NCBI GenBank assembly: GCA_951406725.2 | Contig: OX597819.1 | Span: 46,190,001-46,254,000, forward strand | Reading direction: 5' to 3' | DNA from: Octopus vulgaris | Lineage: Eukaryota | Length of the DNA: 64,000 nucleotides | Shown here: positions 5,130-55,843 of the stretch, piece after piece | Layout of the letters: the number at the start of each line of letters is the position of its first letter | Numbering within the stretch: the first letter of the stretch is position 1 | Notes under the pieces: generated by a model | Told to the model about the DNA's origin: nothing | Seen by the model: only the letters and a program-made list of their open reading frames with translations | The model's database searches: none | Made by a program: the position numbers and the translations under genes

Positions 5130-5953
5130 TTTTAAATAAATGTCTGCAGCTATAACTAAAAGAAAAAGAGAAAAATATATAACTGACGGCCATATTTAAA
5201 TAACGAAGGAATAATAGTGAAAGAGGTTAAGATCGGATCTGAAATAGTTCTATAGCTACAGTTCCCAGTGAGTTCACTCATTGCACTGGAATAGCTACGG
5301 CTCAAAGCCTCAACTATGCGAAAGAGGTTTTAGAGAAAATGGTCAGATGGTTAATAAACCAAATACGGAGAAAACGTACGAGTGAAGGGAGAATATGTTA
5401 GTTTTCCCACAATCGTTCTTTTCGAGTTCTTACGCCACTGTGACTACCTTCATGAAAACACCATATGCTCACAAACACACACACATATAAATGCATATAA
5501 GCATATATATATGAATTAAATTAGAGATAAAACCACTATTAGGCAAATCAAACAGTGAAAAACATTAACCAAAACATAGAAATAAAACTAATTAATATAA
5601 TATACAAAATATAAAATATAAAATACAAAATTTAATTTATATTTATAATTAAATTTAATTTATATTTATACTGTAAAATTGGATTTAATCCTAAATCTAA
5701 TTTTTCCCTGTAAGTTTGGATTTACTTCCTAATATTATTATTATTATTATATATATATATATATATATATATATATATATATATATATTAGTTATCACCA
5801 TACTAATATGGCATTCTTATAAAAATAAGAATAAAGCTGTCCGCTTATTAGCTCCATGAGGCCATCGCCTTAAGTTAGCTATTTGATACACAAACTGTAT
5901 CCATATAACCTTCGAACAAGGGAGGTCAGTCGCTCCACACTACTTGATCGACA

Positions 5954-5995
5954 GCTACAGACGCGTTTCGGGGTATTGCCCCTTTTCAATGTAGC
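5954..5995 (-). ncRNA. Type I hammerhead ribozyme, U3:A8 core variant
   Basis: Reverse complement reads GCUACA-UUGAAAA-GGGG caaua CCCC-GAAA-CGCG-UC-UGUAGC. Confidence 0.85.
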
Positions 5996-6400
5996 GTAGT
6001 CAGACCAGTAGGTGTCGCTTCCGACAATCTCTGTTCGAAGGTTTTATTTACCTAGTTTCAGTGGAATACATCCACTTGTTTTCAATAATAGAAATATTAA
6101 AATTACTAAGTCTCTCTAAAAGAGATCACGGCAGCGTTCCTGGAAAATAATAGTTATCACCATACTAATATGGCATTCTTATAAAAATAAGAATAAAGCT
6201 GTCCGCTTATTAGCTCCATGAGGCCATCGCCTTAAGTTAGCTATTTGATACACAAACTGTATCCATATAACCTTCGAACAAGGGAGGTCAGTCGCTCCAC
6301 ACTACTATTATTGAAAACAAGTGGATGTATTCCACTGAAACTAGGTAAATAAAACCTTCGAACAGAGATTGTCGGAAGCGACACCTACTGGTCTGACTAC

Positions 6401-6442
6401 GCTACATTGAAAAGGGGCAATACCCCGAAACGCGTCTGTAGC
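6401..6442 (+). ncRNA. Type I hammerhead ribozyme, U3:A8 core variant
   Basis: Stem I GCTACA/TGTAGC, core TTGAAAA, stem II GGGG/CCCC, GAAA, palindromic CGCG stem III, GUC cleavage triplet (C6436). Confidence 0.85.
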
Positions 6443-7710
6443 TGTCGATCAAGTAGTGTGGAGCGACTGACCTCCCTTGTTCGAAGGTTATATGGATACA
6501 GTTTGTGTATCAAATAGCTAACTTAAGGCGATGGCCTCATGGAGCTAATAAGCGGACAGCTTTATTCTTATTTTTATAAGAATGCCATATTAGTATGGTG
6601 ATAACTATTATTTTCCAGGAACGCTGCCGTGATCTCTTTTAGAGAGACTTAGTAATTTTAATATTTCTATTATATATATATATATATATATATATATATA
6701 TATATATATATGTATACATATACATGTATGCATGCATGTATGTATGTATGTATGTATGTATATATATATATATATATATATATATATATATATATATATA
6801 TATATATATATATATATATATATATATATATATACATACATACATACATACATGCATGCATACATGTATATGTAGACTTAACCCTGAAATTTCTATCTCT
6901 ATAGGGAGTCTGTAATATCTTTGGTGCTTATGTGAACTTTTGCTACCTTGGTAACTCTTTATCGGTTTTTTCCTTGTTGTTCGTACACATTGAAAAATAT
7001 ACATATATTTATATATGTATATATATATGTGTATGTGTGTGTATGTTTGTATGTATGTATGTGAGTGCGAGTTCATATATACACACACACGTATACACAC
7101 ATATACATACATATATACACACATACATACATACACACATACATACATACACACATACATACATACATACATACATACATACATACATACATATATATAC
7201 ATACATTCATACATACATACATAACTAACGCCTACATCGATCAGAAATTAAAAATGTTAGAAAAGACACATTAACCACATGATAGCGGATTAGACTGAAC
7301 TGTAATAGTCAAAAGAAGACGGAATCGAATTTCTGGAGAAATTATATATATATGGCATGGAATTTCTGACAAGAGATCTTCCTTATGGTCACTCAGATTA
7401 TGAAAAATAGAAGCAAAATATTCTTGCTAAAATCTAAAGTCCTTAAAAGAAACGCTATAATATACGATGTAGTCCTCCATACACAAAGGCTTGATACATA
7501 CGTAAAAGTCACTATTAGAATGTCTTTTGTTATAAGTGTGCTTAATTAGTATGAACCGGGCGTCGGGCCGAAAAACGGTCGACCTTCCGCATTGGTCGCG
7601 GCGCAAATATTAGACTGAGAACGACGCGTACGGGCCGCTGCAGCAGCCGCCGCGCGGCGCGCGTGGATCAAGGCATGCGGCGGCTTCACGCCTTTTGATT
7701 TTGGAAATAA

Positions 7711-8113
7711 GGCGGCGAGCTGGCAGTAACGTTAGCACGCCGGGCGAAATGCTTAGCGGTATTTCGTCTGCCGCTACGTTCTGAGTTCAAATTCCGCCGA
7801 GGTCGACTTTGCCTTTCATCCCAAGGGGTCGATAATTTATGCCCCAGTTGCATACTGGGGTCGATATAATCGACTTAATCCGTTTGTCTGTCCTTGTTTG
7901 TCCTCTCTGTGTTTAGCCCCTTGTGGTTAGTAAAGAAATAGATATTTCGTCTGCTGCTACGCTCTGAGTTCAAATTCCGCCAAGGTCGACTTTGCCTTTC
8001 ATCCTTTCGGGGTCAATAAATCAAGTACTAGTTACGCACTAGGTTCGATGTAATCGACTTAATCCCCTTTTTTTGTCCCCTCAATGTTTATTCCTTTGTA
8101 GGCAATAAAGAAA
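7711..8113 (+). mobile_element. tRNA-derived Nin/Deu-like SINE (dimeric), within a 14-bp TSD
   Basis: Head ggcggcgagctggcag..., B-box GAGTTCAAATTCC present twice, and TSD taattagtatgaac at 7543-7556 and 8114-8127. Confidence 0.85.
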
Positions 8114-8442
8114 TAATTAGTATGAACATGCGTGGACTAATGGTTAGCATGTTCGAATCACAACAGTAATATATTGTGGTGTCATTTCATGGAGTGAGCG
8201 ACGTGTTCTGTCTCTGGGCAAGGCACTTCATTTCACGTACTCCCTGTCTACCCAAGTACAAATTAGTGCCAGCTAGATGTTGGTACATTTCTATCCCCAC
8301 TACCACCACCACCACCACCACCAACACCAGATTTCACATCCTGGCTGGACCGTTGAGTGAAGTCTTAATGGAGCGAAAACGGCGTTTATGTCTTCTCCGA
8401 CAACATCAGCACCTAAAGTAGTAAATAAAAGCATAATACATA

Positions 8443-54087: not shown

Positions 54088-54178
54088 CATTTCCGCTTCC
54101 TGTTGGAGTTTCCTATAACTTTATCCTAATTTAGTCTTGGGATGGTGCAGTGAAGTAATTTCCTGTTGTAGTCTCCAG
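54088..54178 (+). other. Possible 91-nt non-coding (UTR/lncRNA) exon
   Basis: Acceptor tttttcttgtaaacAG and donor CAG|GTAAGC; stops in all three frames. Confidence 0.3.
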
Positions 54179-54609
54179 GTAAGCATGGAGCATAAGATGC
54201 ACTTTTCGCTGTATTTTTTTTTTATATTACAAGCAAGAACCGAACATGATGTTGTGGCGTTCAGACGTTTCTTAAGTGTGTTGCAATTGTCATTTACTTC
54301 CCTCCAGTAATTATCTCCCTAACACGAGGAAGATTATACAAAGCTTCAACTTCAAACATAAACGAAACACGTCGATATTATTTTAATATAGTTATTCTTT
54401 TATCCTTTTACTTCTTTCAGTCATTTGTCTGCGGCCATGCCTAATATTTATTCTATCGGTGACTTATACCGAACTGCTAGGTTACGTGAGCATTAGTCTC
54501 GATTGTCAGGCGATAGCGGGGGAAGATACACACAGACATATGTATGTATATATATATATATATATATATATATATATATATATATATATATATATATATA
54601 TATATATAA

Positions 54610-54815
54610 AGTTAATCCAAACGTGAAAACCCAAAAAGAAAACACAACAACGTGAGGACGTGGAACAAGTATAGTATTATTGGACGCTCAGGAAAGAAGG
54701 GAAGAAGGAGGGTTTAACTTTTCGAGCGGAGCGTTTCGTCAGAAACATAGGAAAAGGAAAGATCCAAAGAAGGGAAGACGGAGGGAAAAATCGCCTACGG
54801 TACACACACGGTCAC
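54610..54815 (-). mobile_element. Solo PLE terminal segment with minimal HHR (54712-54746)
   Basis: Reverse-complement match to 40930-41135; GTTT-CTGACGA-AACGC tcc GCTC-GAAA-AG-TT-AAAC. Confidence 0.75.
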
Positions 54816-55025
54816 AGACACACACACTCACACACACACACACACACACACACACACACACACACACACACACACACACACACACACACACACACACATA
54901 TATATATATATATATATATATATATTTGTCTACTTCTGAAGTCATTCACTCGTGAATTTCATCTCACACAACATGGACAAAATTTCTTCTTAAGAAAAAA
55001 TATATATTCAAATAAATAAAACATA

Positions 55026-55060
55026 ATATCATGAATAGCGATAGCGAAACCGGTCGATAT
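55026..55060 (+). ncRNA. Compact 35-nt hammerhead variant with A3:U8 core
   Basis: ATATC-ATGAATA-GC gata GC-GAAA-CCGG-TC-GATAT, inside a (TA)n-flanked insert at 54925-55105. Confidence 0.65.
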
Positions 55061-55843
55061 ATTAAAAATTATATTAAAACCATGTAAGTGTGCGTATTTT
55101 CCTTTTATATATATATATATATATATATATATATATATATATATATATATATATGTTTATAAATCGGTAAGACAAAAATATATATATATATATATATATA
55201 TATATATATAGAGAGAGAGAGAGAGAGGGAGATAGAGAGAGAGAAAGGGAGAGAGAGAGAGAATTGCATTGTAGTAAAATATAACACTACAGTACTGCAG
55301 AGCTCATATGGATTTCACGATGTATATTCTTGTGCTCTACAAATTTGCTTCATACAGCAACAACACAAATCACACACGCATACACGAACGTATGTAATGT
55401 ATATAAATATATGGCTGGTAGCAAATAGACTATCTGTACAAATTATAGCTGCGTATGAAGAAGACGCCTCGATATATTCTTAAGAAACTTTAAAAGTTTT
55501 ACATTTTTAATACTAATATCTATTATACTCCATGAAGATAATGGCACTTCAGATCTTACGTTTTTATACTCGTGCTTACATGCTCATTCTTTGTTACCCA
55601 TTCTCTCTCTCTTATTCTGTCTCTTCTGTCTTTCTCTGTCTCTGTCTGTCTGTCTGTCTGTCTGTCTTTCTCTCTCTCTCTTTCTTTATATAGATAGAAA
55701 GATAGATAATGTACGCATGTATGTGTGTGCGCGTGTGTGTGTGTGTGCGTGTGTATGCCTATTTTGTTGTGAGTTTAAGGATAGCCATCATTTGCGTACG
55801 TCCCTGTCTTCCTGTTCGTCTGTCTGTCGACGGTATATATGCT

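Follow-up and report, generated by a model that had tools for sequence, protein, structure and literature searches.

The window analyzed here is a stretch of 64,000 nucleotides (64 kb) of Octopus vulgaris DNA (contig OX597819.1, nt 46,190,001–46,254,000) within a 2.8-Gb assembly of 227 contigs (GCA_951406725.2). Its G+C content is 35% and it is rich in microsatellites. Many of its repeats carry motifs shaped like a type I hammerhead ribozyme; some are the 3′ ends of autonomous Penelope-like elements (PLEs), and the others belong to short repeats. A first-pass annotation had listed about 18 motifs in at least 10 sequence-unrelated families of non-coding inserts, most bounded by (TA)n or related microsatellites, beside an intact Penelope reverse transcriptase (RT), and had interpreted them as a community of ribozyme-processed retroelements mobilized by PLEs. 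Its coordinates are counted here as 20 sites, the split site 37868/38194 being taken as two, and at least 11 families were found. The sequence examined overall amounts to ~1.96 Mb, or 0.07% of the genome.

Motifs were searched with a scored type I hammerhead descriptor, which permits minimal stems, an extra base before stem II and long stem II domains. The cut-off was a score of at least 14, and 40 local dinucleotide shuffles served as the null. The window gave 12 matches, while the shuffles gave a mean of 0.65 and a maximum of 3. Eleven of the 12 are annotated sites, and the site at 41363 scored 11; the twelfth match, at 51995 on the minus strand, lies outside the annotation and looks like chance. 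The unselected control, 80 evenly spaced 10-kb stretches (800 kb), gave 47 matches at a score of at least 14 (7–9 in shuffles) and 24 at a score of at least 20 (0–1 in shuffles). The hammerhead-shaped motifs exceed dinucleotide-shuffled sequence both in the window and in the 800 kb, and are therefore real as a class. A strict descriptor found one site in the window and a version relaxed at the 3:8 pair found four, since the majority of motifs are of minimal size, carry an additional base ahead of stem II or contain a long stem II domain. A second, looser descriptor, with 18 matches against 7.3 by chance, was dropped and replaced by the scored one.

Although the excess bears out the annotated motifs as a class, only six of the 20 sites (5954, 6401, 12590, 34585, 44283 and 55026) are complete, having the type I core (C3-U4-G5-A6-N7-G8-A9, G12-A13-A14, a 3:8 pair and an NUH cut site) and all three stems. 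Six others have one core change: A6U at 12191 and 24220, U4C at 41001 and 51599, A9C at 39621 and C3G at 41363. Seven fail the descriptor, namely 49000 and the sites 33186, 53036, 37868, 38194, 42337 and 54712, which are decayed or partial members of families whose motif is visible in other copies. Most window copies show core or stem damage. The typical member has the type I core in families A, C, F, J, K and M and in older copies of family B; the core departs from it in PLE 1 (A6U), in B-young (U4C) and at 14482. That last site (family D, 14482–14540, plus strand) is a weak look-alike with a 3:8 mismatch; it fails the descriptor, is single-copy in the genome search and is unsupported, while most families are multi-copy.

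Covariation gives independent information on the motifs. A search blind to positions 3 and 8, covering the window, the 800 kb and 200 kb of neighboring DNA, returned 28 matches, 24 of which have a Watson-Crick 3:8 pair; three shuffles returned 0–1 matches. The pairs are C:G (14), G:C (6), U:A (3) and A:U (1), the last three kinds each coming from one family. In family F, for which 14 of 20 loci were aligned, five stem pairs are altered on both sides, a result reached by none of 500 shuffles and compared with 0–1 in slid controls; the stem covariation on which the annotation had staked its proposal is thus present in this family. Rfam reported no hammerhead family for nt 4620–6665 or 12060–12860 at E≤5, nor any among the best 150 of 517 matches for the whole window; its matches are microRNA look-alikes driven by microsatellites. 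ARAGORN found no tRNA in the window. Self-cleavage of the motifs is predicted from their structure.

The motifs are not confined to the window. Bootstrapping the unselected sample gave a mean of 3.8 motifs per 64 kb, none of 20,000 resamples reached 12, and the next three 64-kb bins downstream of the window contain 4, 5 and 5. Motifs are therefore genome-wide, their density in the window being roughly threefold the average. Extrapolation gives a genome total of roughly 10^5 motifs, which falls within the range already reported for axolotl, so that the abundance itself is unsurprising. Most families match within the unselected 800 kb and therefore have thousands of copies or more each; families D, G, L and M have no match there, and copies of G, L and M were found by other routes. 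Hammerhead families often sit in the (TA)n flanks of one another (the repeat at 12418 beside the element end at 12328, and loci L131, L175, L186, L221, L222 and L280), and such nesting would explain local clusters such as the window.

Tracts of (TA)6 or longer are 2.2 times as frequent in the window as in the genome sample (18.3 versus 8.4 per 10 kb), in parallel with the higher motif density. Such a tract lies within 300 nt downstream of 19 of the 20 sites, against a null mean of 5.4. In the unselected 800 kb, which is the fairer test, a tract lies downstream of 23 of 36 motifs (null mean 7.1, reached in 0 of 2000 trials) and upstream of 13 of 36. The annotated microsatellite boundaries hold in general, with family I ending in (TTA)n instead of (TA)n.

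The annotated Penelope element is a 5′-truncated copy of PLE family 1 at nt 9739–12328 on the plus strand. It consists of an open frame (9739–11651) followed by the 3′ untranslated region and pseudo-long terminal repeat (pLTR), and ends at (TA)n. The frame has an RT domain (Pfam RVT_1, E 1.2e-7), a CX4CxxC linker and a GIY-YIG endonuclease; the linker, GIY-YIG and the DKG motif of the family were read by eye in translation, and Pfam gave no GIY-YIG match. Longer copies have ~426 more N-terminal residues, including the start codon and the DKG motif. The window copy is therefore truncated, and the annotated "intact" RT is an open frame only. The family itself is very young: 80 of 80 scored matches (from 27,913 candidates) are 99–100% identical without stop codons. 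PLE 1 appears to be Neptune-type, the choice of Neptune over Nematis resting on linker and target.

The motif at 12191–12228 is the own 3′ end of this element. Its core, CUGUUGA, contains A6U, which is found in 30 of 30 motifs of the family. Another register, with a U3/G8 wobble, a bulged stem I and a 2-bp stem II, was judged less likely because related ends read CUGAAGA or CUGACGA in the same register. A natural A6C variant and changes at that position are described as having low activity in the accessible text of Perreault 2011 (PMC3088659). PLE 1 copies finish at one base and continue into (TA)n in 27 of 28 cases. Extension of three loci revealed, in two of them, a complete 4.5-kb unit flanked on either side by the 3′ region with its motif; within the element, a short TA run, which could pair with the nicked target, comes after the end point. 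Further PLE 1 ends occur at 24174–24356 (plus strand, 5′-truncated, motif 24220–24257 with A6U, 95% identical to 12200–12328) and, outside the annotated sites, at 25768–25863 (minus strand, more decayed, seen as a sequence match). Each lies in one of two ~4-kb blocks, 20757–24711 and 25447–29003, that are decayed inverted copies of one another (pieces 78–94% identical). Directly 5′ of the truncated PLE 1, nt 9226–9738 hold head-to-head inverted ends of a short repeat with long outer (AAT)n/(ATT)n tracts; this repeat has two matches in the 800 kb and seems to favor trinucleotide tracts.

Two other autonomous families contribute 3′ ends, both 5′-truncated and on the plus strand. The PLE 2 end (44130–44418) contains a canonical minimal hammerhead at 44283–44317. 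Copies of this family extend upstream in staggered fashion across a CA-rich stretch and, in locus L218, reach a GIY-YIG frame; there and in 5 of 24 further loci the B-type end lies ~1.1 kb downstream of the endonuclease frame. The PLE 3 end (54925–55105) has its motif at 55026–55060, with the core AUGAAUA (A3:U8) and a 2-bp stem II; A3:U8 is found in 23 of 23 motifs. In 8 of 20 loci this end is preceded on the same strand by a PLE 3 open reading frame (ORF) that has a CX4CxxC linker and is 26–48% identical to the PLE 1 frame. Sites 12191, 24220, 44283 and 55026 are thus the 3′ ends of three autonomous Neptune-type PLEs, and the description of the inserts as non-coding fails for these four.

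It holds for families A, C and F, which are ORF-less. In the window, family A is represented by an inverted 5′ partner of 1.4 units (5789–6306, minus strand; hammerhead 5954–5995, core UUGAAAA with U3:A8 and a palindromic stem III) and a direct unit (6305–6673, plus strand; hammerhead 6401–6442) with a 62-nt longer 3′ end, and (TA)n flanks the pair on both outer sides. The period is 362 nt, arrays reach five or more units, and full-length matches are 96–100% identical. In 38 of 39 loci the repeat is longer than a single unit, and 29 of the 39 include an inverted part. The 3′ ends lie at two places relative to the predicted cut site, +236 (28 times) and +171–176 (28 times), and 25 of 30 pattern-found ends meet (TA)n. 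No PLE ORF occurs in any of 30 loci tested. The predicted fold of the unit (z score −8.0) is a long rod whose tip holds the hammerhead, and the core is intact in 69 of 71 motifs, position 7 being free. Five of 70 5′ ends fall within −1 to +2 of the cut site (binomial p 0.001, uncorrected); a rival cluster at +36–39, near an internal repeat that may offer microhomology, holds six, so the ends at the cut site are a hint of cleavage in vivo rather than a result. All 29 bins of the unit are covered by contigs of four runs from four studies, which are only guessed to be RNA and in which strand, ends and circles are invisible; no run recorded as RNA was listed for the unit.

Family C occurs as a 0.77-unit copy at 12418–12866 (plus strand), with a canonical hammerhead at 12590–12680 and a long stem II domain. 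Its period is 583 nt, and arrays reach five or more units; of 21 loci, 16 are longer than one unit and 9 contain an inverted part, and the 3′ ends lie at +195 and +294–306. The core CUGAUGA is found in 34 of 34 motifs. A reading of two copies 2.7 kb apart as a pLTR-ORF-pLTR element was rejected, as the sequence between them contains (TA)n and a fragment of unrelated origin but no PLE ORF. Family F (34267–34858, plus strand; canonical hammerhead 34585–34659) is older, has a period of ~460 nt, a near-dimer and two 3′ ends ~95 nt apart, and had no PLE frame attached in 20 loci; a cluster of partial matches at query position 411 is an artefact of a deletion in the window copy. Another tandem hammerhead family, with three units of ~536 nt and a canonical core, lies ~34.2–35.4 kb downstream of the window (L359–L360 region).

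The three families have head-to-tail ORF-less units, each with a type I hammerhead, as retrozymes do, and fit the retrozyme model well at the level of sequence. Copies that run past one unit and through the cut site would need a circular or an uncleaved multimeric template. Their insertions also display the anatomy of Penelope insertions: an inverted 5′ partner, two staggered 3′ ends and (TA)n targets.

Three other families are monomeric, and in two of them the copies start at a fixed place. The family K copy in the window (42197–42400, minus strand; motif 42337–42387) has the core GUGAACA with G3:C8 and a damaged stem II; G3:C8 is found in 38 of 39 5′-intact copies. All 30 fetched copies start ~20 nt before the core. 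The starts of 20 incidental pieces fall at 1–4 (13 pieces), at 12–14 (3), at or 3 nt before the cut site (2) and later (2). None of 39 copies has the K 3′ end upstream, and apart from inverted K partners and one duplicated locus the copies share no upstream sequence. The inverted partners end near 144–147, 57 nt short of the main end. An apparent K tandem is two copies separated by (TA)n, and the family folds no better than shuffles (z score 0.11).

B-young, which derives from the PLE 2 3′ end, occurs at 40931–41133 (plus strand; motif 41001–41035, core CCGACGA with U4C, 5′ ends clustered), and another family B monomer lies at 54610–54816 (minus strand; motif 54712–54747, stems damaged). U4C is found in 25 of 29 B-young motifs. 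Among fetched copies 28 of 30, and among incidental ones 11 of 17, start within the same ~11 nt, ~105 nt before the cut site, at a putative RNA polymerase II initiator-like sequence. B copies are monomeric, without head-to-tail repeats. Family J (39445–39720, minus strand; motif 39621–39664, A9C in the window copy and canonical in L140) has at least 40 copies of 91–99% identity and two 3′ ends ~57 nt apart, gave no tandem matches, and is probably a monomer resembling a short interspersed nuclear element (SINE). The fixed 5′ end seen in the families of three or four sites argues for linear, mostly uncleaved templates, and K, B-young and J may be SINE-like linear transcripts of solo terminal repeats.

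Considering these data together, the most probable explanation is that all carriers were written into (TA)n by the Penelope RT-endonuclease, the tandem families from circular or multimeric RNA and the fixed-start families from linear RNA. The insertions of the short repeats share the Penelope shape, and they therefore likely borrow PLE enzymes. The GIY-YIG nickase would cut in or near (TA)n, and the nicked strand would act as primer at an AT-rich spot of the RNA. Such priming would match the one or two fixed 3′ ends seen per family, 57–110 nt apart, the second usually on the head-to-head inverted partner, as expected if both target strands prime. Autonomous elements mostly leave 5′-truncated ends with the pLTR hammerhead, as in the window. 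RNAs of A, C and F, the ORF-less families whose copies run past one unit and through the predicted cut site, have intact cores and palindromic stem III, and may, as has been published for other retrozymes, undergo cleavage in dimeric form and yield circles. K and B-young, which start at one place upstream of the core (K never with its own 3′ end upstream), would be transcripts of a solo terminal repeat that resemble SINEs and have no need of cleavage; A6U of PLE 1 and U4C of B-young would cleave weakly or not at all.

A more detailed scheme, which we put forward tentatively and hold to be somewhat less probable than not, distinguishes three ways of living off Penelope enzymes. Circle-going retrozymes would keep an active hammerhead, their self-cut linear RNA sometimes being copied to its end to give 5′ ends at the cut site; SINE-like linear monomers (K, B-young and J), having arisen from solo terminal repeats, would be an undescribed non-autonomous class; and the third way would be that of a highly active autonomous element with a decayed core. 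In this scheme the junctions would be direct genomic evidence that PLE proteins mobilize retrozymes.

Several observations weigh against the Penelope explanation or parts of it. No sequence links A, C, F, J or K to any PLE terminal repeat in the ~1.96 Mb (0.07% of the genome) examined, and a rare autonomous parent of theirs is conceivable. Loci retrieved with a full-length query are skewed to long copies, and neither C nor F has an excess of 5′ ends at the cut site. Family K is tied loosely to its target, with only 14 of 30 copies at (TA)n, and 19 of 25 PLE 2 endonuclease loci have no B-type end within the 1.5-kb flank. The scheme of three classes leaves families E, G, H, I and L outside. Cleavage, circles and 5′-OH ends are predictions, none of them observed, and only one of nine predicted retrozyme dimers cleaved in vitro in the accessible text of a 2026 preprint by Li, Clavereau and Pollet (10.64898/2026.07.22.740005).

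It could also be supposed that every carrier is debris left by autonomous PLEs; the families in tandem and those with a fixed start would then be terminal repeats, later amplified locally, of PLE families whose ORF-bearing copies lie outside the sample. Four sites are indeed such debris, the accessible text of PMC4209133 reads most single motifs in this way, and that of the preprint proposes local tandem amplification of pLTRs. We nevertheless regard this as unlikely: A, C and F have self-closing units (of 362, 583 and ~460 nt) that no ORF interrupts, A and C are dispersed on many contigs at 96–100% identity, each A, C or F insertion has its own (TA)n junctions, and the only upstream sequence common to K copies is that of inverted K partners and of a single duplicated locus.

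The strong form of the first-pass proposal, in which every family is an independent retrozyme with an active hammerhead and circular RNA, is quite improbable. A, C and F agree with it, cores are conserved or covary across families, and the five family A ends at the cut site point the same way. It is contradicted by the four sites that are PLE 1–3 ends, and by K and B-young, whose fixed starts lie upstream of the core and which have no tandem units; the family-wide A6U and U4C changes and the damage in most window copies also speak against it. The proposed community survives as many microsatellite-targeting families tied to PLEs, in which A, C and F fit retrozymes.

Movement of the short families by a long interspersed nuclear element (LINE), or of K as a small DNA transposon, with (TA)n reflecting accumulation in tolerant AT-rich DNA, has hardly any probability, since despite the ~6 nt of terminal complementarity in K, the frequent K 3′ flanks other than (TA)n and the 2.2-fold tract density of the window, (TA)n adjoins 3′ ends much more often than the local null predicts and favors the downstream side (23 of 36) over the upstream side (13 of 36), inverted partners joined head to head, with staggered 3′ ends, belong to the features of PLEs, and neither poly(A) tails nor long terminal inverted repeats were seen.

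Autonomous PLE ends with hammerheads and ORF-less retrozymes are kinds already published in other animals. Cervera and de la Pena (2014; PMC4209133), in the accessible text, report minimal hammerheads that number in the thousands per metazoan genome, belong to many families and are mostly single ones, probably connected with truncated PLEs. The octopus motifs share with the pLTR hammerheads described there the short palindromic stem III, the extra nucleotide between 9 and 10.1, the U3-A8 variant and pairs on opposite strands 100–700 bp apart. They differ from what that text describes in the family-wide G3:C8 (K) and A3:U8 (PLE 3), in stem II domains of 50–110 nt in several motifs, and in A6U in 30 of 30 motifs of the youngest autonomous family. 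PLE 1 resembles Neptune, as described in the accessible text of Craig 2021 (PMC8557442), in its RT, CX2-5CxxC linker, C-terminal GIY-YIG, DKG, partial tandem pLTRs, (TA)n bias and 3′ hammerhead, its non-canonical core being the difference. That text reports the (TA)n bias for Neptune, and gives tandem or inverted structure and a one-sided tail as PLE features unseen in target-primed reverse transcription of elements that lack long terminal repeats (non-LTR elements).

Animal non-LTR retrozymes, including those of mussel, were defined by Cervera and de la Pena (2020; PMC7229834), whose accessible text gives units of 150–450 nt and proposes PLEs as the mover; that of the preprint reports co-occurrence of retrozymes and PLEs, pLTR homology and units of 51–972 nt. 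Like these, A, C and F consist of tandem units that span a few hundred nt, lack an ORF, carry a type I hammerhead and are low in G+C; they coexist with PLEs, and family A also shows strong self-pairing. C (583 nt) and F (~460 nt) exceed the former size range and fall within the latter. The octopus retrozymes are known from genomic sequence, while circular expression is a published feature of the known ones. Where the accessible text of the retrozyme papers relies on co-occurrence and pLTR homology and does not discuss inverted retrozyme partners, PLE-type junctions are present here on each insertion. Short non-autonomous copies with a hammerhead or pLTR-type structure are also described in the accessible texts for the SINE-like hammerhead retroposons of Schistosoma (PMC6765202) and the non-autonomous Chlamys elements (PMC8557442). 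Unlike those, K and B-young are dispersed fixed-start monomers without a tRNA gene by ARAGORN, K has PLE-type inverted partners, and B-young is traceable to a Neptune-type end.

A repeat annotation of octopus from 2026 counts 31 Penelope-like families with recent activity, together with 893 SINE families left unclassified, and ribozymes go unmentioned in its accessible text. Our search of the accessible texts found nothing on cephalopod hammerheads or on PLE-type junctions of retrozymes. It found neither fixed-start monomers nor an A6U core fixed in a youngest autonomous family, and no natural G3-C8 or A3-U8 cores in PLEs, although Lunse et al. 2017 may already report the core variants (G3:C8, A3:U8, A6U, U4C). 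The additions made here are the PLE-type junctions on young retrozymes, the fixed-start SINE-like class and the decayed-looking core in the youngest autonomous family. The mover of retrozymes and the purpose of the PLE hammerhead are stated as open in the accessible texts of PMC7229834, the preprint and PMC8557442. Young high-copy retrozymes with PLE junctions and a very young autonomous family offer matched passenger and donor RNAs for a mobilization assay, and the natural core variants (U3:A8, G3:C8, A3:U8, A6U and U4C) could test whether cleavage is needed.

The remaining hammerhead families of the window are E, G, H, I and L. A family E-related copy (33150–33298, plus strand) has a motif at 33186–33273 with a canonical core, a 6-bp stem I and decayed stems II and III. 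A family E inverted pair between (TA)n tracts (52711–53156) has a plus-strand motif at 53036–53123 with G at position 17 and a minus partner with a damaged core. In the family G inverted pair (37814–38420), the minus copy has a core without the cut site near 37868, and the plus copy starts inside stem II near 38194. Family H (51390–51790, minus strand; motif 51599–51725) has a 100-nt stem II domain and U4C; family I (41310–41620, minus strand; motif ~41363–41468) has C3G, and its core is canonical in L131. A few incidental copies of E, G, H and I occur as inverted pairs or have ends bounded by microsatellites. Family L (48860–49100, plus strand) is a very old repeat, with a motif at 49000–49051 that has a canonical core, a 6-bp stem I and a weak stem II; 14 other fetched copies show only traces of the motif. 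A hammerhead family with a 21-nt stem II domain, frequent in the 200 kb downstream and seen in L103, L108, L121 and L124, usually lies off (TA)n and is probably a PLE family with a different target.

Repeats without hammerheads are also present. A very abundant, sometimes tandem repeat of ~515 nt (4611–5130, 36783–37705 on the minus strand, 39775–40289 and 50715–50799; 25 matches in the 800 kb) has no hammerhead and no Rfam family. Its terminus, a short G+C hairpin and then CTAG-T, may resemble the ends of non-autonomous Helitrons or Helentrons. Fragments at 60282–60659 (minus strand) and in L174 resemble, by eye, the C-terminal end of a LINE RT frame. Two SINE-like groups without hammerheads occupy nt 324–1408, 7707–8115, 8454–8632, 16161–16306 and 29403–29543, and nt 44991–45525, 55837–56263 and 58673–59048, respectively.

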